A stretch of DNA of 64,000 bases from Candidatus Nanohalarchaeota archaeon (GCA_022729235.1 JALDAJ010000001.1:320001-384000), one strand, 5' to 3'. Counted from the stretch's first letter, positions 19,328 to 60,286 are shown. Program-made: numbers and translations. Notes: generated by a model from the letters alone, not told the origin.

Positions 19328-19333
19328 ATTATA

Positions 19334-22995: not shown

Positions 22996-24150
22996 TTACT
23001 CTTCCACCCTTTCACTCAGTACCTGGAAGTTGTTTAGCTGGTAGGCTGTGTCGCTGCTGATAACTACTACGTTATCGCCTTCGATAAGGTCTTCTGCAGA
23101 CACTTCCACCTCGTTTTCCCCGTTTTCAGGCGTCAATTCATATACTTCCTCCCCGTTAATCTCTATCTCCATAGGTCTCGGTGAAGGCAACATCTGCTGG
23201 TAGTCGAATCTTACCAGTGTCCGTGTATCATCGCTTTGGGCAAAGCTGAGTTCTGCACTATCCATCTCGAACACGTCCCTGAGCGTCTGGGTGTCCGTAG
23301 TACCTATTGAACGCATCGTCACCTGGGCGTTTTCTATCTCATACTCCGCTTCACCATCAGTTTCAAACGTTATGGAGTTGTAACCCGGGACCAGGTCTGC
23401 ATCTCCACGGTCAAGCTTGACTTCTTCTGCAAGAACTCTGACCTGTTCATGGGAGTATACCTGATTACCGTTAACATATATTTCAAGAGGGTCTGTCCTG
23501 ACCGAACTGGCTATTCCGAAGGTCAGTTCCGCGTCAACGAAGTCCTGTAACTCGTAGTCGTAGATACGGAACGAGTCTCTGTAATCATGGAACCTCCTGT
23601 CGTTTACCGTGACCTCTACATCTTCAACAGTATATGTGGTGCTGGAAAGTAGTCCTCCCCTGGTTGTTCCGAGCACTATCTCGTTCATACCGTGATTTAG
23701 TACGCCTTCAGGGATCTCTACATCCTGGCTGCTTCCGGATATCATCTGTTCCTCGAAAACTCTTTCATCATTCGCCTCGACGTATACTGCTCCGTCACCG
23801 TCGCGACCAAGAATATCGAATTCAACGTTACCTTCCCGGGGCTGTGTCGCGTTGTACTCCACAACCACATTATCGCTTCCGAAAAGCCTGTTTTCCAGTC
23901 TTTCCTGCCTTGTCCTGTACGCCTGTACGTCCCCGCGCGTCTCACCGACCGTGAAATCTCCGAGGGTTACAGTGCGTAAATCATGCTCGGCGCTCCCTAC
24001 CTCTCCAAAGCTTTCTGACATGAAAACAACCTGTTCACCGGGCTCTTCTCCTGTAACTTCGAAGTCCTGCGCCACTATAAACGCCAGACCGAACACGGCG
24101 AGCCCTACAACTATTATTACCGGGAACGGCGGTATCCCATCATCTCCCAT
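22996..24150 (-). CDS. Membrane-anchored beta-sandwich repeat surface protein
   Basis: N-terminal TM and three repeats like (V/I)x(A/V/I)NG...L..G.N.I. Confidence 0.7.
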   Translation of the reverse strand: MGDDGIPPFPVIIVVGLAVFGLAFIVAQDFEVTGEEPGEQVVFMSESFGEVGSAEHDLRTVTLGDFTVGETRGDVQAYRTRQERLENRLFGSDNVVVEYNATQPREGNVEFDILGRDGDGAVYVEANDERVFEEQMISGSSQDVEIPEGVLNHGMNEIVLGTTRGGLLSSTTYTVEDVEVTVNDRRFHDYRDSFRIYDYELQDFVDAELTFGIASSVRTDPLEIYVNGNQVYSHEQVRVLAEEVKLDRGDADLVPGYNSITFETDGEAEYEIENAQVTMRSIGTTDTQTLRDVFEMDSAELSFAQSDDTRTLVRFDYQQMLPSPRPMEIEINGEEVYELTPENGENEVEVSAEDLIEGDNVVVISSDTAYQLNNFQVLSERVEE

Positions 24151-46422: not shown

Positions 46423-47309
46423 TAGCGATAATAATACCTGCGCTTAACGAGGAAGAAGCCATAGAATCAGTTATAGAAGGATTCCCGGCGAGCTACAGAA
46501 ATCACAGTATGGAGACGTACGTGATAGACGGTGGTTCAACAGATGGAACCCAGGAACTCGCGGAGAGTGCCGGTGCAAAAGTTATCAAGCAGAGACGTGG
46601 AGGCGGAAAAGGGAACGGGGTCAGCCAGGCTCTGGAAGAGATAGACGCAGATATATACGTAATGATAGACGGGGACTCCACCTATGACCCAAAAGAGATA
46701 GACAGACTCGTCGACCCTATAATAGAGGGAGAAGCGGAACACGTCATAGGCAGGCGTTCTGACCGGGAGAAAGGTGCTATACCACGTATCAACCTTGTCG
46801 GGAACTACGTCTTCAACCTGATAACCCGCCTGATGACAGGCAAGGACATCCGTGACATGCTATCAGGTTACCGGGCGTTTACCAGGGAATCCCTGGAACA
46901 CACACATTTCACAAGACCGGGTTTCGGCATAGAAACTGAGATGACGTTTACAGCGCTCGAGAACCATGTGCCGATAAAAGAAGTTGAAATCAGCTACGGC
47001 AACAGGAAGGGTAATAGTAAGCTCCACCCGATGAGAGATGGTTGGCGGATAATCAACACGATAATCTGGAGTATAAGGGACATGAACCCGCTCAAGTTCT
47101 TCTCGACTATATCGCTTTTACTCCTGGTACTTGCGGCATATCCCTCCTACCTGACCATCCAGCAGAAACTGTCCGAGGGCATCATACAGCACCCAGGAAC
47201 CGCGATAGCTGCGGGTGTCCTGGCTATACTTGCGGTGCAACTCTTCGTCTTCGGTATGCTAGCCGACCAGATCAAAAACGTGGAGAAACGGCTCAGAAAT
47301 CGTCGATAA
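46419..47309 (+). CDS. aglJ: GT2 dolichol-phosphate glycosyltransferase, AglJ-like
   Basis: IPALNEE, DGGSTDGT, GKG, DGDSTY, DMLSGYRAFT, GFGIETE, KLHPMRDG and NPLKFF motifs, plus 2 TM. Confidence 0.82.
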   Translation: MIAIIIPALNEEEAIESVIEGFPASYRNHSMETYVIDGGSTDGTQELAESAGAKVIKQRRGGGKGNGVSQALEEIDADIYVMIDGDSTYDPKEIDRLVDPIIEGEAEHVIGRRSDREKGAIPRINLVGNYVFNLITRLMTGKDIRDMLSGYRAFTRESLEHTHFTRPGFGIETEMTFTALENHVPIKEVEISYGNRKGNSKLHPMRDGWRIINTIIWSIRDMNPLKFFSTISLLLLVLAAYPSYLTIQQKLSEGIIQHPGTAIAAGVLAILAVQLFVFGMLADQIKNVEKRLRNRR

Positions 47310-48795
47310 CCGATTCATCCATCTCAACATTCTCCGATGTTACAGGTAAAGCCCGCCCGTCCATGTCACCGGGCACGCTCTCACCAAGCATAGTCAGCAG
47401 GGTCGGTGCTACATCGGTTATGTGACACTTCTCCAGTTCACTTTCCTCAATATCCGGTCCCGCGGCAGCGATGACGCCCTCCAGCCGGTGATGTCCGGAC
47501 TCGGTGTTGAATGGTTCGGAGAACACGTTGTTGGAGCCGAACTCGAAGTAACGGTGTGCCTGGTAATGCATCCCTGTAGTATGGTAAACCAGGTCGGGGG
47601 CAGTATCAGAATTCCTGCCGTGGAACAGCTTCTCTCCTGGTTCTATGTTCTCGACCACTTTCTCTCCCCCGTCCTCAAGATCCTGCAAGAGCTCAACGAC
47701 CTCCTGTTCTGCGTCACCATCCAGCAGGAAGATAGGTCCGAAGTGCATCGCGGAGTAAGCTTTCGACCGCTGGAAATCCACGTCCTTAAAGGAGAGAAAC
47801 GGTAGCGACAGCAGCCTGCGGACCCAGTCCCTATCAGGGTTATCCGTATTTGCCTTGACAAGCACCTCTTCAAGCCCCAGCCTCCTGACTATGCGGTATA
47901 TGTTCTCCATTGTAAGACCCAGTTTGAACGCGAGGTATCTTACCAGCGGTAACGGTCTCCTCTTGATTTTCAGTAGTCCTTCGTCCATCAGCAGCTTGTT
48001 GGGGTTCATACCTCTGTAGAGACCCGTAAACCCATGATCCGAGACCAGAACAACATTTGTTTCTCCCAGTCCGCCCGCTTCTTCTATCAGTTCCCCGATA
48101 GCGGAGTCGATTTCCTGGTAGACACGTTCGACTTCTCCCCTGTAATCAGACTCCTCGAACTCCGGGTGCTCCTTATCGTGGTATTTCCAGAACCAGTGGG
48201 ATATCCTGTCACCGACAGTAAAAACCGGCATGAAAACCTCAGGGCTGCGCTCCTTCATGAGCCTTAACGCAGTTCTCTTCCGGGTCTCAAGCGTCTCATA
48301 GCACTGTTCAATTAATTTCTCCTCATTTGAACCGTTATACGTCCCCGGTGTCTCTATCCGGTAGTCTTCTTCCTCCAGTATAGTTACCACTTCAGAATCA
48401 CCAGACGCCTTTTCTATAGACGGCGTCATCATACCCGACACCATAAACCCGTTGACCTCGCGCGGCGGGTACGTTGCGGGAATGTTCAGCGTCCCGACAG
48501 TGTAGTCTTCTGAAAATATATCAAATATCGTATCATCCTCGACATCATCGAAGCTTACAATCTCCAGACCCTTCCTTGTGGGACGGGTAAAGTCGAATAT
48601 CCCGTGTTTCCCCGGATTTTTCCCGGTCAACATTGATGTCCAGGCAGAAGGCGTTATAGGTATCGACGTAGACTCGAGTTCGCCGAAGACTCCTTGCTCC
48701 GCTATCCTCTTGATGTTAGGCAGCTTTCCATCATCCATGAGTTCCTGCGTCAGTTCGTGGTCCGCACCGTCAAAACCTATGACAAGAAGCTGCAT
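47293..48795 (-). CDS. AlkP-superfamily phosphodiesterase/nucleotide pyrophosphatase (COG3379-like)
   Basis: GFDGA, PITPSAWTSMLTGKNPGKHGIFDF, DRISH, SDHGF and SGHH motifs. No signal peptide. Confidence 0.88.
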   Translation of the reverse strand: MQLLVIGFDGADHELTQELMDDGKLPNIKRIAEQGVFGELESTSIPITPSAWTSMLTGKNPGKHGIFDFTRPTRKGLEIVSFDDVEDDTIFDIFSEDYTVGTLNIPATYPPREVNGFMVSGMMTPSIEKASGDSEVVTILEEEDYRIETPGTYNGSNEEKLIEQCYETLETRKRTALRLMKERSPEVFMPVFTVGDRISHWFWKYHDKEHPEFEESDYRGEVERVYQEIDSAIGELIEEAGGLGETNVVLVSDHGFTGLYRGMNPNKLLMDEGLLKIKRRPLPLVRYLAFKLGLTMENIYRIVRRLGLEEVLVKANTDNPDRDWVRRLLSLPFLSFKDVDFQRSKAYSAMHFGPIFLLDGDAEQEVVELLQDLEDGGEKVVENIEPGEKLFHGRNSDTAPDLVYHTTGMHYQAHRYFEFGSNNVFSEPFNTESGHHRLEGVIAAAGPDIEESELEKCHITDVAPTLLTMLGESVPGDMDGRALPVTSENVEMDESVIDDF

Positions 48796-48848
48796 ATGCC
48801 TTAATTATCTCCAATGCTTTTGTATCAGTTTGTACCTAACTAGGCGAC

Positions 48849-49766
48849 GTGAACTGGAAGAAAATAGCCAAGAACATTACAGCGATAGCGTTACTGGTAG
48901 CGCTTTTTGTCCTCGTTGACCCTCAGGAATTAGCAGGCAGTCTGTCAGGAGCCGACCCTGTCCTCTACTTGACGGGAGTAACCCTTTTTTTGACCACATA
49001 TATCGCTGCCGCTCTGAGGTGGCAGAGGCTGTCGAGATCGATAGGGTATGATCTATCTATTGGGGACGCATTCAAGATCATCGCGGTCTCCTACAGCTTC
49101 AACAAACTGTTCCCTGGCAATGCGGGAGATGTGGGTCGTTCGAAGATATTCGAACAGTTCCACGATGTGGAGAACCATGGAAATGTACTGGGGATAGTGG
49201 CGCTGGAGCGCTACCTTGGAATTGTTTCGCTTCTGGGGATAATAGGTGTCGCATTCCTTTTCATCGATTTTCCTGTCGAAGCTCTTGGGTGGATCCTGTC
49301 TCTGTTTGCTGGTATTTTAGTAGCCTTCAGCTTTCTGCTGCTCATGGATGAAGGATTCATAGAAAAAATCAAGGCACTGGTACCGATTGGATCCGGTTTC
49401 GTCAGTGATCTCTTGAAAGGGTACAGAAGTTCAAGTCGTCGAGATGTAACGGTAAACCTCATCTACTCGCTGTACATACGTTTAACCGAGGCACTGGTGT
49501 TCTACATCCTTATACTCGCCCTCACTCTTGAAACCGGGTTCTGGGAAGGCGCCTTTGTAACATCAATAATGAGTCTTGTATCCGGACTTCCTATATCACC
49601 TGGCGGGCTCGGACCGGTGGATGCGACAGGTACCGGTCTTCTGGTGGTCGCGGGCGTCACATATTCCTCGGCGCTCTCACTGGTGATTCTCCAGAGAAGT
49701 GTCGGCCTGGTATTGATGGCGGTGATAGGGGCTTTAGTATATCTGCTGCATGAGTACTTACTCTGA
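48849..49766 (+). CDS. LPG_synthase_TM / UPF0104 flippase-like membrane protein
   Basis: ALRW, PGNAGDVGR, ALER, PISPGGLGP and LQR motifs. Confidence 0.88.
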   Translation: MNWKKIAKNITAIALLVALFVLVDPQELAGSLSGADPVLYLTGVTLFLTTYIAAALRWQRLSRSIGYDLSIGDAFKIIAVSYSFNKLFPGNAGDVGRSKIFEQFHDVENHGNVLGIVALERYLGIVSLLGIIGVAFLFIDFPVEALGWILSLFAGILVAFSFLLLMDEGFIEKIKALVPIGSGFVSDLLKGYRSSSRRDVTVNLIYSLYIRLTEALVFYILILALTLETGFWEGAFVTSIMSLVSGLPISPGGLGPVDATGTGLLVVAGVTYSSALSLVILQRSVGLVLMAVIGALVYLLHEYLL

Positions 49767-50135
49767 TACTTCCTGTCTCTGCTCAACATAAGGGTCTTCT
49801 ACCCGGGTGATATCTTCGGGGCGGTACGGGAATGATATCTCAAGGATACGTGCGACCTCGCTCCCTATGTTCTGCACCTGGTGTTTCTGCCCGGAGCGTA
49901 TGACCATGGCTTCTCCTTTCTCAAGGTCTCTCATCTCCCCATTCACCCTTATCACGACATTACCCTCTTCAAGATAGATGATATCCTGTTGTTCATCGTG
50001 GTAAGAGTAAGAAGTCATCTCCTGTGCATTTATCACGAGCCTTCTCATACCGAGCATCCCTGCTCTATCTCCGACATCGACCTGGGTCATCAGAACCTGG
50101 TCTTCATACCCCCAGGGCTTATCTATCCTCCCCAT
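49758..50135 (-). CDS. Cupin (mannose-6-phosphate isomerase type II C-terminal-like)
   Basis: DKPWG...SYSYH...KHQVQN...EIS...DITRVED. Confidence 0.8.
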   Translation of the reverse strand: MGRIDKPWGYEDQVLMTQVDVGDRAGMLGMRRLVINAQEMTSYSYHDEQQDIIYLEEGNVVIRVNGEMRDLEKGEAMVIRSGQKHQVQNIGSEVARILEISFPYRPEDITRVEDPYVEQRQEVSE

Positions 50136-50160
50136 ACGGCATAAAGAGAGGTCAAAACTC

Positions 50161-51099
50161 TTATACGTGACTGCGGTAGAACTTAACAGTCTTCTTTAGA
50201 CCTTCCTCAAAATCATATTCAGGTTCGAATCCCAGTACATCACTGGACTTGGAAATATCAGCTTTCGTTGCCTGGACATAGTTATCACGAGGATTCTCAA
50301 CATGTTTCGGCTCGATACTTTTCTCCAGTACCTCGTTTAACTTCTCCACTACCGAGTTGAATGAAACATCCCTACCGGTCCCGATATTGAAGTACCTGCC
50401 GTCAAGTTCTTCTCTTCTCTCCGCTGCCAGTATGTTGGCGTTAACGATGTCTTCTACAAAAGTGAAGTCCCGTGTCTGGTTTCCATCACCCCATATAACC
50501 GGTCTTTCATCATCCATCATCCTCCACAGGAACTGGGTCACTACATTCGCGTACTTATCCTTCGCCCGTTCACGGGGTCCGTAGACCGCGAAGTAACGTA
50601 GACCGGTGGTCTGAATCTTCTCATTGTATGAGTAAACCTGGGCATACCTCTCACGAGCCATCTTCGATGCGGTGTAAAGGTTTGTAGGCACCTCTCCCGT
50701 GTCTTCCCTGTGCGGCGGGTCGATGCTGCCGTACATAGAACTTGTCGATGCGTACACGACCTTCTCGACGCCTTCCTCTACAGCCACTTCCACTGTATTA
50801 ATGAAGCCTTCAACATTTACCCTCGCACCTTTCCGCGGATTATCCATGTGCATCGGTGCCGAGCTCCGGGCTGCCTGGTGGAACACTGTATCGCAACCTT
50901 TCACCGCGTCTTCTACCTTCTCACGGTCGAGGACGCTGCCTTCGATGAACTCGATATCGTTTCTCACTTCTGACAGGTTATCCTCGCTCCCGAGAAACAG
51001 GTCATCAAGGACCGTTACCTCCAAACCACGATCAACAAGTTCGTGGACAAGGTTCGACCCTATAAAACCTGCTCCCCCGGTGACTAGAACGTTCTCCAT
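50161..51099 (-). CDS. NDP-sugar epimerase/dehydratase
   Basis: TGGAGFIG, YTASK, LRYFAVYGP and GDGNQTRDF motifs. Confidence 0.92.
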   Translation of the reverse strand: MENVLVTGGAGFIGSNLVHELVDRGLEVTVLDDLFLGSEDNLSEVRNDIEFIEGSVLDREKVEDAVKGCDTVFHQAARSSAPMHMDNPRKGARVNVEGFINTVEVAVEEGVEKVVYASTSSMYGSIDPPHREDTGEVPTNLYTASKMARERYAQVYSYNEKIQTTGLRYFAVYGPRERAKDKYANVVTQFLWRMMDDERPVIWGDGNQTRDFTFVEDIVNANILAAERREELDGRYFNIGTGRDVSFNSVVEKLNEVLEKSIEPKHVENPRDNYVQATKADISKSSDVLGFEPEYDFEEGLKKTVKFYRSHV

Positions 51100-51155
51100 G
51101 TTAACGGTTTTTTAACAAAAACTTAAAACTCAATCTTCCGGAAACTTCTCTATAC

Positions 51156-51581
51156 ATGAGCCTCTCATACCTCCGTTCAGTGATGGTCGGCGAGTCAAAA
51201 GCCTATGGATTCACTATCGCGTTCTGGGGGTCCGGTATAATACTGGTAGACTTCCTGGGGATGCCAGGACTTACTGAGGCGCTTTTATTCGGTTTTGGAG
51301 CAGTCATGGGTTTTGGGTTGTTAGCGATCTTTGCATTTAGAGGTAACCTGATGGAGGAAAGTCCAACGAACCTGCTCGTCTTCAGCTCTGTCCACTACCT
51401 GTCTGCATTATTCCCTGTTGCAGTCTCCTACCTGATCGTACAGTACGTCGCCAGTACGGCAGCAGCTTTTTTCCTCGCCGGTATGAATGTATCGGTTTTC
51501 TATAACCTGTTGATGGTTGTAGAGAAGATGTTTGCCGATAAAGGTATTGCAATTGAGAGAAAGATTGAATCTTTCTTTTAG
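51156..51581 (+). CDS. Small 4-TM membrane protein
   Basis: 141-aa hydrophobic ORF containing ESKAYGFTIAFWGSG. Confidence 0.7.
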   Translation: MSLSYLRSVMVGESKAYGFTIAFWGSGIILVDFLGMPGLTEALLFGFGAVMGFGLLAIFAFRGNLMEESPTNLLVFSSVHYLSALFPVAVSYLIVQYVASTAAAFFLAGMNVSVFYNLLMVVEKMFADKGIAIERKIESFF

Positions 51582-52327
51582 TCATCTATGTCCATCCAGC
51601 CCCCGCCGTAGATGTAGCCAGCAAGAGACCTCTCCGAGGCAAGTTGCTCGAATACGTCCTCAAGGCTGTCACTGTCAAGCCGGTCAAATATCTCCGGGTC
51701 AAGCACATAAGTCCCCGCGTTTATCAGCCTTGAAGGCTCTTTTCCAGGCTCAGGCTTCTCCTCGAAGCCCAGTATCCGACTCCCTTTCAACCGGGCGACC
51801 CCATACTTTGAAGGGTCTTCGACAGTTGTCAGCGCCATAGTCGCGAGCACGTCTTCCTCCCTGTGGAGGCTCATCATCTCGTTCAGGTCAACGTCGCTTA
51901 TCACGTGACCGTTCAGTACGGCAAACATACCCTCGACCGCATCCTCTACAGTTCTCAGCGCTGCAGCCGTTCCCCGTGGGTCTTCTTCAAATACGTAATC
52001 CAAAGCCATACCGGAACTACTGGAGCCGAAATACTCCTCTATACCCTCGTTCCGACCAGCCAGGAGCACGACCCGGTTAACTCCTTCATCGGAAAGGTGT
52101 TCAAGCACGTGTTCAAGGACAGGTTTACCCTCATACTCCTCCATGGAACGGTTCTCTTCGTCACCACAAAGGACAACCGCAGTATCTACAGATTTACCCC
52201 GGAAGTAACCGTCTACGAGGTCTTCAACCATCTGTGAACGGTTAAGACCCTTGCCCGACGCCTCCTCATCGATTTTCTCGACCAGTTCTTCCTCAAGTGT
52301 AAGGGAAACTCGTTTCTTGGGCATCAT
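51578..52327 (-). CDS. RHH domain fused to a degenerate sugar-phosphate nucleotidyltransferase
   Basis: KKRVSLTL...LNRSQMVE (RHH). PRGTAAAL, PSKYGV, FEEKP and INAGTY are present, but GxGTR...PK is missing. Confidence 0.85.
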   Translation of the reverse strand: MMPKKRVSLTLEEELVEKIDEEASGKGLNRSQMVEDLVDGYFRGKSVDTAVVLCGDEENRSMEEYEGKPVLEHVLEHLSDEGVNRVVLLAGRNEGIEEYFGSSSSGMALDYVFEEDPRGTAAALRTVEDAVEGMFAVLNGHVISDVDLNEMMSLHREEDVLATMALTTVEDPSKYGVARLKGSRILGFEEKPEPGKEPSRLINAGTYVLDPEIFDRLDSDSLEDVFEQLASERSLAGYIYGGGWMDIDD

Positions 52328-52359
52328 GAAAAACTGAGGTACTCAGACTTTAATTATTC

Positions 52360-53277
52360 GTGCCCGAAACTCTTTCCGTGATAGCGGTAACAGGCGGTGC
52401 TGGGTTCATCGGTTCAAGGCTCGCGGAGAGACTGGTTGAAGAAAATGAAGTAATAGTGGTAGACAACCTGTCCTCTGGTAAAAAGGAGAATATTCCCGAA
52501 GGAGCAGAGTTCGTAGAGAAAGACATAAAGAACGCTGAACTAGACGTAATCTTCGATAAGGTCGATACAGTCTTCCACTTCGCAGCCAATCCCAAAGTCA
52601 ATACGTTCCCTGACGACAGAGGGAAGGATTTCGAGGAGAACCTGGTAGGAACCAAGAACGTTCTCGATGCATGTGTTGACGCAGATGTAGAAGAACTGGT
52701 GTTTGCATCTTCTTCCGTCGTGTACGGAGAAAACGCGGAGATACCGACACCTGAAACGCATGAGATAGATCCTATCTCAATGTACGCCGCGACGAAATGC
52801 GGTGCAGAACACATGTGCCAGGTCTACTCCCAGATATTTGGCATCGACCTGACGGTACTCCGGTACGCGAACATCATCGGACCAAGGAATCAGAAGGGTG
52901 TGATCTGGGACTTCATACACAAGCTGGAAGAGAGTTCTGAAGAACTTGAGATACTCGGCAACGGGAAGCAGAGGAAGTCCTACCTCTACATCAGCGATGC
53001 TGTTGACGCGACCCTGGAAGCGTGGAAGTCGCCAGAAACAGTGTACAACATCGGAAGCGGAGATGCGGTTTCAGTAGATAAGATAGCGGAGATAGTATCA
53101 GACGAGATGTCGCTGAATCCTGAACTCTCCTACACGGGCGGCGAGAAAGGCTGGAAAGGAGACGTACCCGAGATGCGGCTCAGCATCGAGAAGCTGAAGA
53201 ACGAGGGATGGTCACCGGAGGGAAACTCAGTGGAAAGTGTGAGGAAGACCGCGAGAAGACTTCTCGAAAACCGTTAA
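52360..53277 (+). CDS. NDP-sugar 4-epimerase-like
   Basis: TGGAGFIG, PISMYAATK, LGNGKQRKSY and GWKGDV motifs. Confidence 0.9.
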   Translation: MPETLSVIAVTGGAGFIGSRLAERLVEENEVIVVDNLSSGKKENIPEGAEFVEKDIKNAELDVIFDKVDTVFHFAANPKVNTFPDDRGKDFEENLVGTKNVLDACVDADVEELVFASSSVVYGENAEIPTPETHEIDPISMYAATKCGAEHMCQVYSQIFGIDLTVLRYANIIGPRNQKGVIWDFIHKLEESSEELEILGNGKQRKSYLYISDAVDATLEAWKSPETVYNIGSGDAVSVDKIAEIVSDEMSLNPELSYTGGEKGWKGDVPEMRLSIEKLKNEGWSPEGNSVESVRKTARRLLENR

Positions 53278-53648
53278 TCTTCTACTCTCTTCTCTAACTT
53301 GATCCTGTCTGTAAACCGGTCGTACTTTTTATCGCTCGACACAATCCGGTCACCCCCAGATCTTACGAGGTGTAGGGCATCAAAAGGCGTGAAACCATCC
53401 TCTTCAATGTATAAAGCCGCGACCTCTATCGCTTCACTATCTCCTTTCACCTCGATAAGTTCTACAGTCTCCGAGACCAGCTTTACAACATTCATGCCCT
53501 CCCTATAACCAACCATCATCAGCTCGACCAGAGTGTATTCCGAAGTCCACAGGTCATTCTTGTGCTCCCTGAAAACCTCTTCCGCAGCTTCTGTTAACCA
53601 GTCTTCTTCCTGTATGAGCGCCAGCAAGAAATCGGTATCAGCGTACAT
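53274..53648 (-). CDS. vapC: PIN-domain (VapC) toxin
   Basis: Start MYADTDFLLAL at 53648, with TLVE, TPFDALH and SSDKKYD motifs. Confidence 0.88.
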   Translation of the reverse strand: MYADTDFLLALIQEEDWLTEAAEEVFREHKNDLWTSEYTLVELMMVGYREGMNVVKLVSETVELIEVKGDSEAIEVAALYIEEDGFTPFDALHLVRSGGDRIVSSDKKYDRFTDRIKLEKRVED

Positions 53649-53649
53649 C

Positions 53650-53874
53650 CTATCTTCCTGCCTGCTCCTTTGCCTCTTCAAGAGCTTCTTTTTTGAGTTC
53701 ATCAACAGACTTATCTACATCAGAGAAATTTTGCCTGAGAGCTTCCAGCGGGTCGCTGGACACCGGTATCAGAACCAGTCTATCGCCCTTGCGAACTAGG
53801 TGAAACCGTTCACCCAGATCCCTCCGAACATCCTTCGGAATGTAAATCCGCCCATCTGATACATCCACTTCCAT
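53650..53874 (-). CDS. AbrB/MazE-type antitoxin
   Basis: DGRIYIPKDVRRDLG...LVLIP, directly upstream of the PIN gene. Confidence 0.88.
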   Translation of the reverse strand: MEVDVSDGRIYIPKDVRRDLGERFHLVRKGDRLVLIPVSSDPLEALRQNFSDVDKSVDELKKEALEEAKEQAGR

Positions 53875-53970
53875 AAAAACCCGTTATACTCCAAAATTTA
53901 AATATTTTTCCGAAAAGTTAGAAAATCGGAAACCGTTAACCTGATGAGTGTTGGACATCAATTCACAGCC

Positions 53971-54366
53971 ATGACTCAAGAAGACTTACCGGAGAGCGAT
54001 GAAGAGTGGCGCGAGAAGCTGTCTGGGGATGAGTACCGCATCCTCCGCGAATCAGGCACTGAGCCGCGCGGAACCGGCAAATACCTGGAGAAAGACGATG
54101 AAGGAGTCTACCGCTGTAAAGCCTGTGGTCAGGAACTCTTCCCAAGCAACTACAAGTTCCCGAGCGATGGCTGGCCCAGTTTCTACGATGCAAAAGAAGA
54201 TAGCGTCGAGTTCAGGAAAGACGAGAGCCACGGCATGACAAGGACTGAAGTAGTGTGTTCTAACTGTAAGTCTCACCTCGGACACGTGTTTGAAGACGGA
54301 CCGGAACCTACTGGTAAGCGCTTCTGCGTGAACTCCGTAGCGCTAGAATTCGAAGAAAAAGGATGA
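53971..54366 (+). CDS. msrB: Peptide methionine (R)-sulfoxide reductase
   Basis: GTE, YRCKACG, GWPSF, SHLGHVFEDGP and RFCVNS motifs. Confidence 0.96.
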   Translation: MTQEDLPESDEEWREKLSGDEYRILRESGTEPRGTGKYLEKDDEGVYRCKACGQELFPSNYKFPSDGWPSFYDAKEDSVEFRKDESHGMTRTEVVCSNCKSHLGHVFEDGPEPTGKRFCVNSVALEFEEKG

Positions 54367-54395
54367 TAGAAAAGTAGAGGTATAGGCTCTCTACA

Positions 54396-55310
54396 TCACA
54401 TATATCCAAGCTGTCTCAGGCGATTCATTATCTCTTTGTCGTCCTTGTTCTGGGCTCTTCCAGCGCGTTCCTTAGTGTTCTCCACATCCTGGAGCCACGC
54501 CGGCATCTCATCGCTCTTGTCTGTCGAGACCTCCGAGCCGAGCGAGCGGTATCCTGCCCAGTACTTCGGGCTAATCGGGACATCCTCCTTGGAAACTCCT
54601 TCCGGCAGGTCGTCCTCGCTTTCAGGGTACTCGTCAAGTTCCACATCAGTCACATCCGGCACCATGTGGAACCAGGATACGTCCCAGACCTCTCTTTCGT
54701 CGAACTGAAGGATAGGGTGGACGCGCATGTGTCCGGGATTGTCTCTCGGAGAGTAGAAGTCCTCGTCACCTCTCGACTCGTGTTCATCCCACCGCACACC
54801 GTTGATTACCGCGTCGATACCATGGTTCTCCAGCAGTTCGTTCATCGGAACCGTCTTCAGAAGGTGGTTGCCCGCCTCAGTATCCATCAGCCACGGCACC
54901 TCCTCGTAGTCTCCAACGCGTTCCGCCTCTCTCTGGTTCCGTTCGTTTAACTCTTCGACAGGTACTTTGTCACCGGGCTTGTCAGCCTTTTCTATCAGGT
55001 CCTCGTTCTTCGCGACCATGATGTCGAAGCCCCATTTCTCCGCTATCTCTTTTACGTAGTCCTCCAGCTCGTCAAAGTGCTGTCCATGGTCCACGAACAT
55101 GAACCGTGGTTTCTCGAATCCTTCGTCCTCACAGACTCTCTTCACGAGCCACGCCGTTAAAGTAGAGTCTTTACCACCGGTGAAGCCGATGACAGTGTTC
55201 CCAGAGTCGTGCTCCTCAAGGGCGCGCTTAACGACTTCCTCGCCGGCGCGAATCTTGGCTTTTAACGGTGCGTTCTCGATCTCGTCACGTGTTACAGGCG
55301 GTTCAGGCAT
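54396..55310 (-). CDS. PAPS-reductase-family PP-loop protein, most like sulfate adenylyltransferase subunit CysD
   Basis: FTGGKDS, GVRWDE..SR..E.FYSPR, RVHPI..F.E..VW, GYRSLG and an ERAGRAQ...LGYM tail. It lacks the C-terminal ECG of CysH. Confidence 0.8.
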   Translation of the reverse strand: MPEPPVTRDEIENAPLKAKIRAGEEVVKRALEEHDSGNTVIGFTGGKDSTLTAWLVKRVCEDEGFEKPRFMFVDHGQHFDELEDYVKEIAEKWGFDIMVAKNEDLIEKADKPGDKVPVEELNERNQREAERVGDYEEVPWLMDTEAGNHLLKTVPMNELLENHGIDAVINGVRWDEHESRGDEDFYSPRDNPGHMRVHPILQFDEREVWDVSWFHMVPDVTDVELDEYPESEDDLPEGVSKEDVPISPKYWAGYRSLGSEVSTDKSDEMPAWLQDVENTKERAGRAQNKDDKEIMNRLRQLGYM

Positions 55311-56065
55311 TAGTTTTCACCAGTATTTTTTGTTGCATAGAGAATCCCTGTTCCGGAACTATGAGATACGAAATCTATCTCGAACCCGTTTTCCTCTAGT
55401 TTTTCGATTATCGGTTTCTCGGTGCTGTGAGTCTCCATGGCTATTTTCTGTATCTTCACGAGATTCTCGGGCGTGATAGCCTCGAATATATCGGCTTCAC
55501 TGCTTTCGCAGTCGACCTTGAGAAACTGTATTTCGCCTACCTCGTCCACAACATCATTTATTGAGACCGTTTCTATCTCCTGGTCGCCCTCATCTCTTAC
55601 CGAGTTAGTACCTGTCTGACCGGATTTTTTGAGTTTCTCAGTTCCTGTGGTGGCGTAAACCGCCTTATTCCGTGTATCAACGTTTTCTAGGTCGTTACGC
55701 CTCACGTTCTCCTCAAATATCTCGAAGTTCTCTTCCTCTGGCTCGAAGCTGTAGACTTTCCCGGCGTTCCTGGCAGCCAGGACAGTAAATGAACCTATGT
55801 GGGCGCCGATATCTACCACGGTGTCACCTTCTTCAACGCCGAAGTTCTTGGTGTAGTCTTCGTCTACAAAGATCTCTCTCAGGACGTACCTGTCATCAGT
55901 GTTCCCTCTCGCCAGGAATTCTTCGCCTTCACGCGTCCAGTAAGTAATCCTGTCTTTCCTGAGCAACTTGTTGAGGTAAAAATCATACCAGTTATCGAAA
56001 ACTCTTATACGTCCTTTAAACGCCTTTAAAGCCTCGGAAAACTTAACCACTACTTTCCACTCCAT
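55310..56065 (-). CDS. FkbM-family methyltransferase
   Basis: VVDIGAHIGSFT, SFEP and LKVDCE motifs. Confidence 0.9.
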   Translation of the reverse strand: MEWKVVVKFSEALKAFKGRIRVFDNWYDFYLNKLLRKDRITYWTREGEEFLARGNTDDRYVLREIFVDEDYTKNFGVEEGDTVVDIGAHIGSFTVLAARNAGKVYSFEPEEENFEIFEENVRRNDLENVDTRNKAVYATTGTEKLKKSGQTGTNSVRDEGDQEIETVSINDVVDEVGEIQFLKVDCESSEADIFEAITPENLVKIQKIAMETHSTEKPIIEKLEENGFEIDFVSHSSGTGILYATKNTGEN

Positions 56066-56825
56066 AGTAAGCTTTTATCGCTTTCCCGACGTCCTCAGGC
56101 TGTCCTATCTTGTAGTCAAGGTTTTTCTTGATAAGTACCGCGTCCTCGTGGTGGTCACCCTCCAGCTCTCCGTGAGGTGTTTCCTCCGGTAGAGTCTGTA
56201 CACGACCTTCTCCAAACTCCGCGAACCCGTGGTCGCTCAGGACTATCAGCGGCTCGTCAGAATCAAAGTCATAGTACTCCAGTAGTTCTCCGAGGACGTC
56301 ATCCATCCTCCGGTACCAGTCCAGGACAAGTTCTTTGTCGTTCCAGTAGAAATGACTGACGCGGTCGAGCTGCATGAAGACAACGGCGAAAAAGTCCGGC
56401 TCCTCTTCAAGGACTTCTCTGCATTTCCTGAGTAGTTTCCTGCGGTCTGCTTCCAGCTCGTCGAGGTCGCTGGATACGCCGAAACCTTCCGGCTCGTAAT
56501 CCGTATTATAGTTAATCGGCGGTATCACCGCAGGTACCTGTAGAACGCGGGCTTCAACCTCTTTGTCAAACTCCTCCCAGACAAATGTGCCGTCGATGTC
56601 TCCCTGTTTCTGTAGTTCGTCATCGACCACGAAGTCTTTATGGCCGTGTTCTTCCTGTCTCAACCCTGTGAAGATTGATGTCCAGAGAGGCGCGCTTTTA
56701 GGCGTTTCTTCGACGGTAATGGTCTTGTACTCGCACTCTCGCATGAGCCTGTCGAAGTTCGGTAACTCGTCCCTGTGAGGCTTGATGATATCCCATGTCG
56801 CGGCGTCTATCCCTATTACCTTCAT
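56043..56825 (-). CDS. Short AlkP-superfamily phosphodiesterase-like protein
   Basis: Start MKVIGIDAATW at 56825, with SAPLWTSIFTG...HG..DF, DRVSH, SDHGF and GDH motifs. Confidence 0.85.
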   Translation of the reverse strand: MKVIGIDAATWDIIKPHRDELPNFDRLMRECEYKTITVEETPKSAPLWTSIFTGLRQEEHGHKDFVVDDELQKQGDIDGTFVWEEFDKEVEARVLQVPAVIPPINYNTDYEPEGFGVSSDLDELEADRRKLLRKCREVLEEEPDFFAVVFMQLDRVSHFYWNDKELVLDWYRRMDDVLGELLEYYDFDSDEPLIVLSDHGFAEFGEGRVQTLPEETPHGELEGDHHEDAVLIKKNLDYKIGQPEDVGKAIKAYYGVESSG

Positions 56826-56885
56826 TCGAAAACTCGCCTCGCGTGTTTTCTGCAAGAAGATTTTGTAAATCTTCGTTCGAAACTC
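56825..56885. repeat. Twin-hairpin element flanked by a short direct repeat
   Basis: Hairpins at 56828-56850 and 56856-56874, with TTCGAAA(A)CTC at both ends. Confidence 0.55.
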
Positions 56886-56908
56886 ACCTGATTTTCAACC
56901 ATTATCCT

Positions 56909-57109
56909 CTACTCCATGTATCCTAGTTCCTTCAGTTTCTTCCCGATTTGTTTAGCTTCTTCCTCGGATATCTTTTCCTCGGATTCCATATCCTTGACCG
57001 CTACGTGCTCCAGGAAGCTCCTGACGGAGCCGAAGGACTGGTCCTCGATGTAATCTTTAACGTCTTCCACGAAATCTCGCTTGAATGAGACGGTCGTATA
57101 ATCCGACAT
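56909..57109 (-). CDS. CopG/RHH-like small protein with an LxxLGY tail
   Basis: YTTVSFKRDFVEDVKDYI...FGSVRSFL...KKLKELGYME. Confidence 0.8.
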   Translation of the reverse strand: MSDYTTVSFKRDFVEDVKDYIEDQSFGSVRSFLEHVAVKDMESEEKISEEEAKQIGKKLKELGYME

Positions 57110-57110
57110 C

Positions 57111-57128
57111 TTAATTAAATTTAATTAA
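57111..57128. promoter_or_regulatory. Perfect 18-bp palindrome, putative operator of the RHH gene
   Basis: TTAATTAAATTTAATTAA lies between the ATG (57109) and a TTATAA box near 57136-57141. Confidence 0.5.
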
Positions 57129-57204
57129 CAACCGCTTATAAGTCCTTGGAGATCCTCTGTCCGCACTGGAACCCTATTAAATCCAGAAGACCGGAAACTA
57201 GTGT

Positions 57205-58737
57205 ATGTCGAACAGAACCCTGAATATACTGGTAAAGGGTGCAGGACTCGCCGCATTGGGAATGGTGATTTCCAAGTTCCTGAGCTACCTCTACCGCGCC
57301 GTAGTCGCCCGGATGATAGGACCGGAGGCTTACGGTCAGCTCTCGCTGGCGCTGATGGTTCTGAACGTTGTCGGCGTAATCGCTTACCTCGGGCTTGACA
57401 CAGGGATGCAGAAGTTTATCGCGAAGTACCGCGAAAAGAATGAACCGTCCTCTATCAGAGGTACATTTCTCTCCGCCTTCCACATCGGTATACCCGTTGC
57501 TCTCACGATGAGCGCTATCATGTTTCTTTCAGCAGACTTTGTCGCAATGAACATATTCGAGAGTCCTGAACTCGCACCTCTCATAAAGGTGCTGGCGTTC
57601 GTGCCGCCTTTCGGCGTGGTCTCCCAGATCAGTCTTTCAACCACTCTCGGCTTCGAGAAAATGAAGTACCGTGTACTGACAAAACAGGTATTCCAGAACA
57701 TCGTACAGCTACTGGCGACGGTAGGCTTCATCTACATGGGATACGGCGTCGTAGGCGCGGCAGGAGGCTGGCTTGTAGGAACAGTGCTTGGTGCATTCGC
57801 CATACTCTACTTCGCCTGGAAGTTGATCGGACCGTTGAAAGGCACCACCAGGGACTACAACCACCATGAGCTTTTCAACTACTCCTTCCCTCTTCTGCTC
57901 TCCGGCGTGATCGGCACTCTGCTCGGGATGGCGGATACCGCGCTGATAGGTTATTTCATGGACGATGCCTCGGTAGGATTCTACAACGCCGCTCTTCCTA
58001 TCGCTGCACTAATACTCCTGCCTTACAGCGCATTCAGCGGTCTCGCATTGCCCTCGATGTCCCGCGTGGTTGAAAGCGAAGAGCTGGAGCTGTCCTCGGT
58101 ACTGAAAACTCTTACACGGTGGACTTTCCTCGTATCATTCCCTGCAGCAGTCCTCATGATACTGTTCTCCGAGCAGGTCCTGCACCTGCTGTTCGGTCGA
58201 GAGTACACTGTCGCATCAACCGCATTAATCATCCTTTCTCTGGGCTACATGTTCTCGACAGCGGTAGGACACCTCGGAAAGGTCATCAAGGCGATAGGCA
58301 GGACAGAGATAATCTTCAGGAACACTGTCGGCAACCTATTTCTCAACATAATACTGAACGTGATACTCATCCCCCGGTACGGCATCGTCGGCGCGGCGAT
58401 AGCGACCGCCGTATCGACCGTTTTCGTCAATACTCTACTGTTGATAGAGACCTACTACTTCGAGAGAACGCATCCGTTCTCCCGGCACAACTGGAAACCC
58501 GTGGCGGCGGCGATACCTGGAGTCATACTGATCTACTTCGCGCTTGAAACCCTCTATACAACGGTGCCGTTCTGGACACTGGTACCCGGTGGAATCGCGT
58601 TCGGTGTAATCTACCTTCTCGCGGTGATAGGTCTCGGAGCTGTACGGGAAGAAGACCGCGACATAATCGTCGGCGGGTTCAGGATGATAAACCAGGAAGA
58701 ACTTGGCGAGAAAGTCGCCGACCTTTTAATTAGATAA
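57205..58737 (+). CDS. Wzx/MOP-family oligosaccharide flippase
   Basis: ARMIGPEAYG, DTALIGYF...VGFYNAA and LIPRYGIVGAAIAT motifs. Confidence 0.92.
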   Translation: MSNRTLNILVKGAGLAALGMVISKFLSYLYRAVVARMIGPEAYGQLSLALMVLNVVGVIAYLGLDTGMQKFIAKYREKNEPSSIRGTFLSAFHIGIPVALTMSAIMFLSADFVAMNIFESPELAPLIKVLAFVPPFGVVSQISLSTTLGFEKMKYRVLTKQVFQNIVQLLATVGFIYMGYGVVGAAGGWLVGTVLGAFAILYFAWKLIGPLKGTTRDYNHHELFNYSFPLLLSGVIGTLLGMADTALIGYFMDDASVGFYNAALPIAALILLPYSAFSGLALPSMSRVVESEELELSSVLKTLTRWTFLVSFPAAVLMILFSEQVLHLLFGREYTVASTALIILSLGYMFSTAVGHLGKVIKAIGRTEIIFRNTVGNLFLNIILNVILIPRYGIVGAAIATAVSTVFVNTLLLIETYYFERTHPFSRHNWKPVAAAIPGVILIYFALETLYTTVPFWTLVPGGIAFGVIYLLAVIGLGAVREEDRDIIVGGFRMINQEELGEKVADLLIR

Positions 58738-58759
58738 AAGCCTTCCATAAATAACGTAC

Positions 58760-59437
58760 GTGATAAAACGCAGATTAAAATCAGGGGTAAAGGAAAACAA
58801 AGCATCAGCACTGTTCCTGCTACAAATATACAAACACATCTTCCGGTTCTATTACAGGTTCAAGACATGGTGGATGTACGGCAGGAGATACGAGGCTGAC
58901 ATGGATCCTTTTAACCTGATCTGGGTAAATCCTGCGGAAATCGAGAACAAGTTGGAAAAGAAGGAACGGAAATACTTTTTTGCAAGCCATGTCCGGGGCG
59001 GAGACTGGGACCTCAAAACCGACGATTTTGAGAATTCAGGGCAGTTCAGGCGCGTAAAGAAAGTAGTGGAGGACGGAGATGGCGATGAAAAGACAAGAGA
59101 ACTCTACAATTCAATCAGGAAAAATGGGTACAAGACGCAGGAAGAACTCTCTAAAGAGACTGTCACAGCCACTTCCAAGGATACCACCATCGATCCCTAC
59201 CTGGGAGAGATAAACGAGATAATGGTATGCATAGGTAGAGAAGGAGACATACTATTCCGGGATGGCGGGCACCGTTTATCGATAGCTAAAATACTGGATA
59301 TAGAGAGCATACCTGTCAGAGTAGTCAAGAGACACCGAAAATGGCAGGAAAAAAGAGACAGGGCTATAAATAATCCTGAAAGCCTCGACGATAGATACCT
59401 GAGACATCCTGACATCAAGCCGCTTCTCAAAGACTAA
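58760..59437 (+). CDS. ParB/Srx-like domain protein
   Basis: LYNSIRKNGY...IGREGDILFRDGGHRLSIAKIL..ESIPVRVVKRH. Confidence 0.75.
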   Translation: MIKRRLKSGVKENKASALFLLQIYKHIFRFYYRFKTWWMYGRRYEADMDPFNLIWVNPAEIENKLEKKERKYFFASHVRGGDWDLKTDDFENSGQFRRVKKVVEDGDGDEKTRELYNSIRKNGYKTQEELSKETVTATSKDTTIDPYLGEINEIMVCIGREGDILFRDGGHRLSIAKILDIESIPVRVVKRHRKWQEKRDRAINNPESLDDRYLRHPDIKPLLKD

Positions 59438-59649
59438 TCCAGGTATCCCAGTCCGCGTAGCCGTTTCTTGACCTCTTCTTCCTCTTCCTCACTGTAAGAA
59501 GACTCCTGCTGTTCTTTCTCCTTCTTTATCTTATCGACGACCTGCTCAAGAAGGTGCTCGATGTATTCTCCCGTATCATCGAAGTCTTTTTCCTCTGCAC
59601 GCGCCTCTAGAACACTGTAAATATCATCGTCTACTTCAACTGTCGCCAT
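59434..59649 (-). CDS. CopG/RHH-like small protein with an LxxLGY tail
   Basis: TVEVDDDIYSVLEARAEEKDF...EYIEHLL...YSEEEEEEVKKRLRGLGYLD. Confidence 0.82.
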   Translation of the reverse strand: MATVEVDDDIYSVLEARAEEKDFDDTGEYIEHLLEQVVDKIKKEKEQQESSYSEEEEEEVKKRLRGLGYLD

Positions 59650-59686: not shown

Positions 59687-60286
59687 TTATAGGTCAAGGG
59701 AGCCGAGCTTCTCACGGAACTCCTCGTTTCTGAGTAACGGTTCCGAGTCCCTATACGCACTCACCAGGTCGTTCCTACCACTCATTTGCTCTTCCACATC
59801 CCGGAGTATTCTTTTTCCTTTCCCACCACCGTCGAAGTATTCGTACAGCGACTCACACATCGCCAGATAGTTGAACATCGGGCTTTCCTCCCTGTAACGC
59901 TTCATACCGATAAGGTGTAGCCCGTCGTCCGCCCGGATGATATTCCCGTAGTTGAAGTTCGGGAAGTACACCTCGACACCTTTTTCTTCCAGCTGTTCCG
60001 AGAACCTGTACGCAGCCTCCATCAACTCACCGATGTTCCGGGAACGCGGGCGGAACTTCCTGCCCTCAATGAACCTGTCCTCTACAAGGCAGTACCCGTC
60101 TACCTCTTTTACGACCTCGAAAGGTTGTACCTCTATCTCGCGGTTAGCGGAGTTAACCCTCTCTATACTCTCCGCCGTGGAGAAATCAATCCTGTTCTCC
60201 GGCACCATCTTCAGTACTCTACCTTTGTCCGGCTGTATACTGGTGAGCGCGTTGCCAGTCCGGATTATACCGTCCTCGAAACTCAC
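59687..60286 (-). CDS. Hypothetical protein, possibly a degenerate kinase-like fold
   Basis: VLK, E.RFIEG and NFNYGNII...LHLIG resemble APH/PKL motifs without the catalytic Asp residues. Confidence 0.5.
   Translation of the reverse strand: MSFEDGIIRTGNALTSIQPDKGRVLKMVPENRIDFSTAESIERVNSANREIEVQPFEVVKEVDGYCLVEDRFIEGRKFRPRSRNIGELMEAAYRFSEQLEEKGVEVYFPNFNYGNIIRADDGLHLIGMKRYREESPMFNYLAMCESLYEYFDGGGKGKRILRDVEEQMSGRNDLVSAYRDSEPLLRNEEFREKLGSLDL

Follow-up and report, generated by a model that had tools for sequence, protein, structure and literature searches.

Why do a CysD-like enzyme and two tiny regulator-like proteins encoded in one archaeal glycosylation island end in the same short peptide, and why do two enzymes of the alkaline phosphatase (AlkP) superfamily encoded beside them lack it? 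The question is raised by JALDAJ010000001.1:320001-384000 of Candidatus Nanohalarchaeota archaeon (GCA_022729235.1), a DNA stretch of 64,000 nucleotides (nt) that is called the window here, with positions counted from its first letter. The genes lie in an island anchored by the oligosaccharyltransferase gene aglB, and an initial annotation had proposed them as a candidate glycan-sulfation module. We found that the module is real and wider than first thought. Its interpretation as a sulfation system was supported in part: the pairing of the enzymes and the glycosylation context speak for it, and the tail turned out not to be peculiar to the island. As the best reading, at about even chances, we propose a glycan-sulfation module of CysD-like and AlkP enzymes whose parts and regulator would share a docking helix. 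A terminal peptide common to enzymes and regulators points to an undescribed way of building or regulating a glycan-modifying machine.

Recurrence of one C-terminal tail in the window

Among the 1151 stop-to-stop frames of at least 30 amino acids (aa) in the window, three end in LGY followed by 0-3 residues; all three fit the pattern L[RK]xLGY, and [LIVM][RK]xLGY occurs nowhere else in these frames. The three genes lie inside 5.3 kb and encode the CysD-like PP-loop enzyme (54396..55310, minus strand, 304 aa; PAPS_reduct, 8.7e-24), which ends IMNRLRQLGYM (codons 54399-54431), and two tiny proteins, s66 (56909..57109, minus strand) and s71 (59434..59649, minus strand), which end IGKKLKELGYME and VKKRLRGLGYLD, respectively. 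This recurrence, pointed out in the initial annotation and confirmed by the frame scan, is not due to chance. In the protein families that bear such a tail, its common core reads, in order: hydrophobic, x, x, basic, L, x, x, L, G, Y and again hydrophobic. L59, L62, G63 and Y64 of s66 are invariant among 14 homologues, as are R63, L64, L67, G68, Y69 and L70 of s71 among 8 homologues. The LGY tail is absent from both AlkP enzymes of the window, namely AlkP500 (47293..48795, minus strand; PF01663, 2.2e-31), a full-size COG3379-type protein ending SVIDDF, and AlkP270 (56043..56855, minus strand; PF01663, 8.6e-25), a minimal AlkP-fold enzyme.

The minus-strand operon has the order s66, AlkP270, FkbM-type methyltransferase (55310..56065, minus strand; Methyltransf_21, 1e-13; TIGR01444, 2.5e-26) and CysD-like enzyme, with s66 upstream of AlkP270 on the same strand as had been described. 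The methyltransferase and AlkP270 genes overlap by 23 nt, and the TAA stop of the methyltransferase gene has one base in common with the ATG of the CysD-like gene (TAATG), with GGTGA found 8 nt upstream. No FkbM gene occupies the position between AlkP270 and the CysD-like gene in 16 related loci.

Pairing and fusion of CysD-like and AlkP genes

Two natural fusions, which involve different AlkP subtypes, are the strongest evidence that AlkP and CysD-like enzymes act together. In Ca. Nanohalalkaliarchaeum (locus L021, 5420-7132), AlkP270 and the CysD-like enzyme form one frame of 570 aa that ends LGYM and has no stop at the junction. In P0283, a protein of 739 aa with basic composition, a full COG3379 protein (PF01663) is joined to a PAPS_reduct domain and the end is KKLRQAGYW; the C-terminal domain matches the CysD-like protein of the window over its whole length (E 1e-29), and P0283 scores 114.9 with the CysD model, for which the cut-off is 195.

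Gene order gives the same picture in separate genes. Species-representative genomes were scanned with an alignment of the CysD-like family; 599 stretches were matched, at least 422 were confirmed, and the best 80 loci (23 Nanohaloarchaeal and 57 from Halobacteria) were compared. In 13 of the 23 loci from Nanohaloarchaea (L002-L009, L012, L015, L016, L018 and L019), the CysD-like gene is immediately preceded on its own strand by a gene of the AlkP family; such a gene lies within 800 bp in three further loci (L011, L017 and L022) and is fused in L021. A small LGY gene alone precedes the CysD-like gene in L013, and in the remaining loci the contig end is too close for adjacency to be judged. A small LGY gene is found at most 312 bp upstream, on the same strand, for 15 of 16 AlkP270-type genes, L016 being the exception. 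The downstream order in Nanohaloarchaeal loci is that of the window: epimerase, nucleotidyltransferase with a ribbon-helix-helix (RHH) domain, membrane protein, epimerase, cupin, GT4 and AglB.

The 23 Nanohaloarchaeal islands hold 50 AlkP-fold open reading frames (ORFs), with up to 9 per 20 kb; 46 of the 50 are tail-less, and 15 of these 46 lie directly beside a small LGY gene. Of the 57 loci of Halobacteria, 25 have a gene for a PF01663 protein of 450 aa no more than 250 bp away from the CysD-like gene, in divergent, tandem or convergent arrangement, and all 25 of these proteins are tail-less. The initial annotation had named as a check the co-occurrence of RHH-LGY genes with tail-less AlkP and CysD-like genes in archaeal glycosylation loci, and this co-occurrence was found. 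The glycosylation context of the module covers two archaeal groups and, in addition, a Halopiger plasmid (NC_015658.1), on which the order is tail-less AlkP, PiT-type transporter, CysD-like, GT4, tailed sulfatase, GT4, tailed AlkP, GT4 and sulfatase, the AlkP nearest to the CysD-like gene being the tail-less one.

Because of conserved adjacency, translational coupling and the two natural fusions, we regard the AlkP and CysD-like enzymes as a physical pair. A CysD-like enzyme adjacent, coupled or fused to an AlkP enzyme is a concrete candidate for sulfate activation and handover.

Occurrence of the tail across protein families

In the 80 loci, [LM]GY followed by 0-3 residues ends 112 of 10,655 ORFs. 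As judged by eye, 108 of the 112 are CysD-like, AlkP, sulfatase-like or tiny operon proteins, and the other four look like chance. Scanning of eight larger tail-bearing ORFs gave four Sulfatase and two Phosphodiest matches, one ORF without a match and one fragment.

The tail is also frequent in the relatives of AlkP500, of which 15,266 were found at E <= 0.001. Among the best 150, 95 end in L..[LMIV]GY followed by 0-4 residues, in the form of an acidic stretch and then (I/V)-K-E-R-L-(R/K)-x-L-G-Y-(L/I); about 13 of these 150 COG3379 representatives have, by eye, a basic end without Tyr, e.g., LRKLGKI or LKTAGRI. Because 78 of the 95 tailed COG3379 proteins are not acidic (net acidic fraction of at most 0.02), the tail is not a halophile trait; none of the 95 reaches the value of at least 0.08 seen for the window proteins. 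The statement in the initial annotation that many haloarchaeal COG3379 and sulfatase proteins carry an LGY tail thus holds more widely than it was made, extending to 95 of the best 150 and mostly to non-acidic proteins. The tail is not peculiar to this island: in the CysD-like protein it is inherited from CysD, and it is also the usual end of COG3379 proteins in non-halophiles.

In the PDB, the 175-aa chain 7yq0_A, named 'adenylyl-sulfate kinase', ends KKLMELGYL at the very end of the chain (last residues VEEEVEAVLKKLMELGYL). It was found with the s66-family profile as a weak match (E 0.24), and a profile of the tail alone gave no significant match in the PDB. A literature search with the PDB codes of this kinase led to a single paper, whose title is about furin.

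A purely structural end-piece, serving as helix cap or for self-association, might also account for the tail, in which case the tiny proteins would be ordinary RHH repressors with a look-alike helix. The sequence L-x-x-L-G-aromatic does occur inside unrelated solved proteins, such as the C-terminal domain of the RNA polymerase alpha subunit (DEIAEKLNDLGY), the terminal helix of ribosomal protein L7/L12 is similar to the s66-family end (E 0.036), and a free end is not needed, as 21 of the best 120 CysD-like proteins have 7-20 residues past GYM. This explanation is nevertheless quite unlikely in our estimation. The N-terminal half of position-equivalent tiny genes changed type and the tail stayed; AlkP enzymes have it behind long acidic linkers; ORFs with [LM]GY ends belong, in 108 of 112 cases, to the protein kinds named above; and the AlkP enzymes beside a tail-bearing partner are tail-less in 25 of 25 cases, in contrast to 63% tailed in the best 150 of the family. 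We favor a helix that would dock one protein to another, and we give it roughly half of our confidence.

A membrane-targeting helix was considered as well and was found unlikely, given the acidic flanks and the presence of the tail on a transcription factor and a kinase; bearing on this idea, 21 of the 120 CysD-like proteins do have a hydrophobic extension past GYM.

CysD-like protein and its relation to CysD

The CysD-like protein belongs to PAPS_reduct (PF01507), with 84.9 bits against a gathering cut-off of 22.5. Its best NCBIfam model is that of CysD (PRK05253), with 76.3 bits below a cut-off of 195, and TIGR02039 likewise stays below its cut-off (52.9 versus 396.6). The closest relative in the PDB is CysD of the CysND complex (1zun_A, E 1.4e-7), with which the HMMER alignment pairs the C-termini, and the second is FAD synthase (E 2.8e-4). 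T44-G-G-K-D-S49, R173-W-D-E, R255-S-L-G, E281-R-x-G-R and L-G-Y-M are invariant in 14 sequences of the family, which thus has the PP-loop and the C-terminal blocks of CysD, including the end in GY plus a hydrophobic residue. The archaeal C-terminal consensus is T-x-ERAGRAQ-DKE-x-(I/L)M-x-(R/K)LR-x-LGYM. CysD of E. coli K-12 (b2752) ends GYF in the annotated genome and aligns with the CysD-like end, and because of this match the LGY tail of the CysD-like protein is regarded as an inherited CysD feature. The list of invariant columns contains no Cys, and the family is therefore no reductase.

The family has 2959 members with a near-invariant end. Identity is 80-90% within Nanohaloarchaea and about 53% to Halobacteria. 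The Atlas clusters closest to the protein bear the names sulfate adenylyltransferase or nodulation protein. Among the best 120 of the 2959 members, 92 end in LGY plus 0-3 residues, five end MGYM or AGYM and two are fragments, with GYM or GYC as the end of 97. A homologue on a Desulfolutivibrio plasmid is 36% identical over the full length and ends AMAQLRALGYM.

The other 21 of the best 120 run on for 7-20 mostly hydrophobic residues past GYM, e.g., GYMAVPLFAVGLQ. Such an extension, with no stop at the usual site, was seen in L008, L018 and L019 and in P0016, P0024 and P0134, and it could be membrane-associating.

The families of adenosine 5'-phosphosulfate (APS) kinase, EF-Tu-type GTPase, ATP sulfurylase and sulfotransferase gave no Pfam match in 60 ORFs of the window, nor in 62 further ORFs from seven related islands, where no cysN or cysC was found within 10 kb; the absence of cysN, cysC and P-loop sulfotransferase genes from the window, stated in the initial annotation, was thereby borne out and extended. 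It also bears on the possibility that we are dealing with an ordinary subunit of an assimilatory ATP sulfurylase, with its GTPase and APS kinase encoded elsewhere and 3'-phosphoadenosine 5'-phosphosulfate (PAPS) produced for ordinary sulfotransferases. This is the least probable of the alternatives that we weighed, as neither cysN nor cysC accompanies the gene in the window or the seven islands, and as the fusions join AlkP domains to it and not a GTPase or kinase. In its favor, the window is only 64 kb of the genome, the CysD-like family is near-universal in Halobacteria (at least 422 confirmed matches), an APS kinase with the same tail is in the PDB (7yq0), and a canonical sulfotransferase lies 2.7 kb from the homologue of Desulfolutivibrio sulfodismutans; against the last point, no sulfotransferase was seen in the stretch of a second Desulfolutivibrio plasmid.

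The conserved Tyr suggests another role for the tail, that of a swinging arm for sulfuryl groups. With ATP, the CysD-like enzyme would charge the Tyr, which would be sulfated or adenylylated in its site; the group would then be passed to the AlkP site, so that AlkP and sulfatase-like enzymes would deliver it to glycans. AlkP enzymes with a tail would use their own (in cis), and tail-less ones that of a tiny protein (in trans). If true, this would be a sulfation pathway that needs neither PAPS nor a GTPase and relies on a peptidyl aryl-sulfate. In general, enzymes of the AlkP fold accept aryl sulfates well as sulfuryl donors; all 97 CysD-like tails and all 36 small-protein tails examined have the Tyr; and in the window and seven islands no CysN was found that would pull the uphill synthesis of APS. 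There is a precedent in the PAPS_reduct superfamily, since sulfonucleotide reductases have an essential C-terminal Cys that attacks (P)APS and carries sulfite covalently, according to the portions of Carroll (2005, PMC1175818) used here. On the other side, about 13 of 150 COG3379 representatives have the basic Tyr-less end, the tail of the tiny proteins is part of a transcription factor, and past the Tyr there are 0-3 residues that vary. Moreover, true CysD has a GYF end and yet releases free APS. We consider a carrier function very unlikely, and give no better prospect to its corollary that the tiny proteins would double as transcription factors reporting the loading state.

AlkP enzymes and the group that they may transfer

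Both AlkP enzymes are members of PF01663, with 110.2 bits for AlkP500 and 88.5 bits for AlkP270 against a cut-off of 23; with the sulfatase family PF00884, AlkP500 reaches 17.7 and remains under the cut-off of 25. The Thr in PITPSAW of AlkP500 aligns with the Thr in LTFPNHY of 2gsn, a nucleotide pyrophosphatase/phosphodiesterase (NPP) of Xanthomonas, where we take it to be the nucleophile; the overall alignment is weak. AlkP270 appears to be minimal in size and yet complete as a two-metal enzyme that uses Ser as nucleophile, because D7, S44, D154, H158, D198 and H199 are invariant in 36 sequences, with H225/H226 nearly so. In the database protein AlkP270 starts at the ATG at 56825 (260 aa) and not at the TTG at 56855. 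Its family comprises 48 proteins found, all of about 257 aa, and sequence search gave no solved relative. Since both AlkP500 and AlkP270 begin at the first metal-binding strand, they are considered to have no signal peptide.

AlkP500 is part of a subfamily (including P0184, P0185 and P0188) with conserved ends of its own, SVIDDF, AGIDI, EGIDF and LGIDY. Other COG3379 proteins are fused, P0205 (862 aa) to a class I methyltransferase, which recalls the methyltransferase inserted in the window operon, and P0186 (1104 aa) as two tandem AlkP domains.

In five sulfatase-like proteins of related islands, the N-terminal catalytic segment does not contain C/S-x-P-x-R, the formylglycine maturation motif of sulfatases, and has W-T-[LM]-[PS]-S-H in its stead; a looser pattern of the same type occurs in these proteins at two unrelated distal sites only. 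Because the formylglycine motif is replaced (Thr), the five proteins fit transferases better than classical sulfatases. A full-text literature search, which gave one unrelated paper, found no function for the COG3379 family, and the present association is a first functional lead for this very large family and its C-terminal motif.

The group that is moved might be of phosphoryl type. In that case the substrate adenylylated by the PP-loop enzyme would be a compound that bears phosphate, and the glycan would receive a phospho-group from the NPP-type enzymes. This would suit the membership of both AlkP enzymes in PF01663, with the sulfatase score under cut-off, the second place of FAD synthase among the PDB relatives of the CysD-like protein (E 2.8e-4), the PiT-type 'inorganic phosphate transporter' that adjoins the Halopiger homologue, and the methyltransferase inserted in the window operon. 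We judge it unlikely, however, as the top curated models are those of CysD, the nearest Atlas clusters bear the names given above, the CysD-specific C-terminal blocks (RSLG, ERxGR and the GY end) are kept, and tailed sulfatase-family proteins lie in the same islands. The literature points the same way, with sulfated N-glycans and AlkP-type sulfotransferases documented in haloarchaea. The low-salt glycan of Hfx. volcanii contains a sulfated hexose, to whose sulfation Agl7 contributes, in the portions of Kaminski (2013, PMC3892788) considered, in line with what the initial annotation had stated of some haloarchaeal N-glycans. Agl30 and Agl31 (VNG1056C/VNG1057C), which belong to the AlkP superfamily, are described as N-glycan sulfotransferases of Halobacterium salinarum in the corresponding portions of Zaretsky (2025, PMC11980604), a paper in which term searches gave 0 occurrences of 'donor', 'PAPS' and 'phosphosulfate'. 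Compared with phosphate-type groups, sulfate appears to be the somewhat more probable substrate.

Tiny proteins and palindromes

The two tiny proteins are paralogues, homologous over the full length (hhalign 97.3%, E 2.5e-11), and s66 has an RHH-like N-terminal half, an acidic linker and the LGY tail. Their membership among RHH proteins is weakly supported by sequence comparison. A relative in L022 scores 20.6 with RHH_1 (cut-off 20.5, E 4.3e-4), and a relative of type B, defined below, scores 20.4 with CcdA (cut-off 22.4). The Atlas clusters nearest to P0012, the s66 homologue of Halorubrum, are named CopG (scores 0.92 and 0.89).

The slot upstream of AlkP270 is occupied by proteins of two N-terminal types, MSDYTT(V/I)S... 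(type A, as in the window) or M-x-RKTISLP... (type B), which have the tail in common. Each type has its own palindrome. In the window, the perfect 18-bp palindrome TTAATTAAATTTAATTAA (57111..57128), a candidate operator, lies 1 nt upstream of the s66 ATG near the TATA-like CTTATAAG (57135-57142); it occurs once in the window, where 0.06 occurrences are expected by chance. The type A palindrome, TAATTAAAT-N-TAATTA, accompanies all three type A genes (window, L019 and L003), and is located, in the window and L019, between a TATA-like box and the start codon and, in L003, upstream of such a box. The type B palindrome, ATGCATAA(G/C)TTATGCAT, has 13 sites with at most two mismatches in 334,258 bases: eight directly before the ATG of the small gene, three 13-22 nt before CysD-like genes (L001, L010 and L017), two in rearranged or partial contigs and none elsewhere.

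The covariation of palindrome type with N-terminal type speaks for regulators that bind DNA at operators of their own, and the tiny proteins fit autoregulating RHH-like regulators that would bind these sites. The earlier idea that RHH proteins link enzyme state to transcription agrees with palindromes at their own gene starts and before CysD-like genes. Genes of the s71 type have a ribosome-binding-like GTGAT motif upstream and no palindrome, and in other genomes they directly follow a tail-less AlkP gene. In the window, s71 is the last gene of a minus-strand run of NTP-transferase, methyltransferase, unknown 199-aa ORF and s71.

Positions 34-63 of the s66 profile resemble the last helix of bacterial L7/L12 (GVSKQEAEEIKKKLEAVG) at a borderline E of 0.036, and this likeness may be a mere common helix-cap pattern.

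Proposed working of the module

In the glycan-sulfation reading, the CysD-like PP-loop enzyme would activate an oxyanion, most likely sulfate, to APS, and the AlkP-fold enzymes, with their Ser or Thr nucleophile and two-metal site, would put the group from this product on sugars. The two enzymes work as a physical pair, as shown by adjacency, coupling and fusion, and the transfer to sugar would proceed without CysN, CysC or a P-loop sulfotransferase. The tail, a short helix of amphipathic character with the end L-x-x-L-G-Y-hydrophobic, would serve for docking and would have come down from CysD. Most COG3379 enzymes and some sulfatase-like ones have it in cis; for an AlkP partner that lacks it, it is found on the CysD-like enzyme or a tiny protein. 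The tiny RHH-like autoregulators probably bind the palindrome at their own promoter and sometimes at that of the CysD-like gene, as the covariation of the two suggests. Regulators bearing the tail could sense free docking sites and thereby match transcription to assembly of the complex. If this is true, a transcription factor with the docking peptide of its enzymes would be an unusual feedback design.

Several findings weigh against this reading. The window covers 64 kb of a genome of about 1.03 Mb, and cysN, cysC or sat may lie elsewhere in it. What points to sulfate as the substrate is a sub-threshold likeness to CysD (76.3 versus 195 bits), the model scores being far under the cut-offs, and the AlkP enzymes of the window are of the phosphodiesterase family PF01663 and not of the sulfatase family. 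Neither s66 nor s71 has a match in the Pfam scan, and hhalign gives 4-6% for the tiny proteins against the RHH domain of the neighboring nucleotidyltransferase. The 25 pairings in Halobacteria fall, in a tree, mostly into one Halorubrum/Halopenitus/Haloparvum clade plus Halorutilus, and because of this grouping the independent associations of AlkP and CysD-like genes are counted as roughly three overall, not 25. The transporter that adjoins the CysD-like gene on the Halopiger plasmid (L082, 6705-7826, divergent) is a PiT-family 'inorganic phosphate transporter', which to judge from its family could import sulfate or phosphate. Many haloarchaea have a CysD-like gene without AlkP or glycan neighbors; Natrinema thermotolerans, Halarchaeum and a plasmid of Haloarcula are examples. 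In Haloferax and Halobonum, where two CysD-like paralogues stand in tandem, the genes on either side are one for DUF7110 and one for a PP-loop protein of the diphthamide-synthase type (PF01902), with no AlkP gene nearby; this was seen in L055 of Haloferax gibbonsii (9213-12765) and in L035, L042, L057 and L068. These tandem copies had led to the suspicion that Agl7 (HVO_2046) is CysD-like, which was not borne out, the CysD-like locus of Haloferax being distinct from the agl5-15 cluster.

The literature search, with subscription journals and supplements outside its reach, found no description of the tail, of the CysD-like/AlkP pairing or of the tiny regulators, and among the papers listed none joining Nanohaloarchaea with CysD or sulfatase terms.

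Other features of the island

The AglB oligosaccharyltransferase gene (41052..43529, plus strand; Pfam STT3, 2.3e-17) is followed by genes of the Pfam families GT4, PMT_2 and GT2 up to 47309. Between AlkP500 and the nucleotidyltransferase gene lie those of an LPG-synthase-type membrane protein, a cupin and two epimerases. The sugar-1-phosphate nucleotidyltransferase (51578..52327, minus strand; NTP_transferase, 2.8e-25) has an N-terminal RHH domain (RHH_1, 2.1e-6); this fusion recurs in 18 of the 23 loci of Nanohaloarchaea, with its place in the island unchanged, and suggests an enzyme that may also bind DNA. A PIN/MazE pair, and then MsrB, separate it from the minus-strand operon. The pair, of the PIN-domain/MazE toxin-antitoxin type, is at 53274-53874 (minus strand), between an epimerase and MsrB within the glycosylation island, and a comparable pair adjoins the CysD-like gene in L001. 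A polysaccharide flippase-type membrane protein (57205..58737, plus strand; Polysacc_synt_3, 1.8e-33) is encoded divergently from s66.

Two ORFs flank s71, one of 225 aa (58760-59437, plus strand), whose end overlaps that of s71 by 4 nt in convergent orientation, and one of 199 aa (59687-60286, minus strand). Neither has a relative in Pfam, NCBIfam or the PDB, nor a BLAST counterpart in the 80 loci. Pfam gave no match at all for 18 of the 60 ORFs scanned in the window, and several large ORFs (370-956 aa) at 14778-24150 and 632-5019, both on the minus strand, have no Pfam match at 1e-5. The RNA genes detected in the window with Rfam and ARAGORN amount to one tRNA-Ser, distant from the island.

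Comparison with known systems

CysD (E. coli b2752 and P. syringae 1zun) has in common with the CysD-like protein the PAPS_reduct/PP-loop fold with the TGGKDS loop, the RWDE, RSLG and ERxGR blocks, and the end of GY and one hydrophobic residue. Unlike CysD, the CysD-like protein scores far under the CysD cut-offs, has no CysN or CysC nearby, and has as partner, by adjacency and fusion, an AlkP-fold enzyme. The sulfonucleotide reductases (CysH/APS reductase) belong to the same superfamily, and each side has a conserved C-terminal segment. In the reductases this segment acts where the sulfonucleotide is bound and holds the group by a covalent bond, as described in the portions of PMC1175818 cited above, whereas the CysD-like tail conserves Tyr and not Cys, and a redox partner is not evident.

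Within COG3379/PF01663 ('predicted AlkP superfamily phosphohydrolase/phosphomutase'), AlkP500 is a full-length member and AlkP270 departs from the typical size as a minimal 260-aa form with 48 relatives found; both differ from the commonest form of the family, which ends in the LGY tail, in being tail-less. As for Agl30 and Agl31, the AlkP proteins of the window are without a P-loop and lie in an aglB-anchored island, and tailed relatives from the sulfatase family lie in related islands. The window pair, however, belongs to PF01663 and not to the sulfatase family, and it is likened to Agl30/Agl31 by location, not sequence; the portions of PMC11980604 considered here name no CysD-like partner.

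The tiny proteins resemble RHH regulators and antitoxins of the CopG and CcdA type in their small size and strand-helix-helix-like N-terminus, in being encoded first in an operon, before the presumed partner, and in having a palindrome at their own promoter. They differ in that the window proteins are without Pfam RHH membership, the gene keeps a constant place within a glycosylation island of the chromosome, the partner encoded downstream is an enzyme of metabolism, and the tail copies that of the enzymes.

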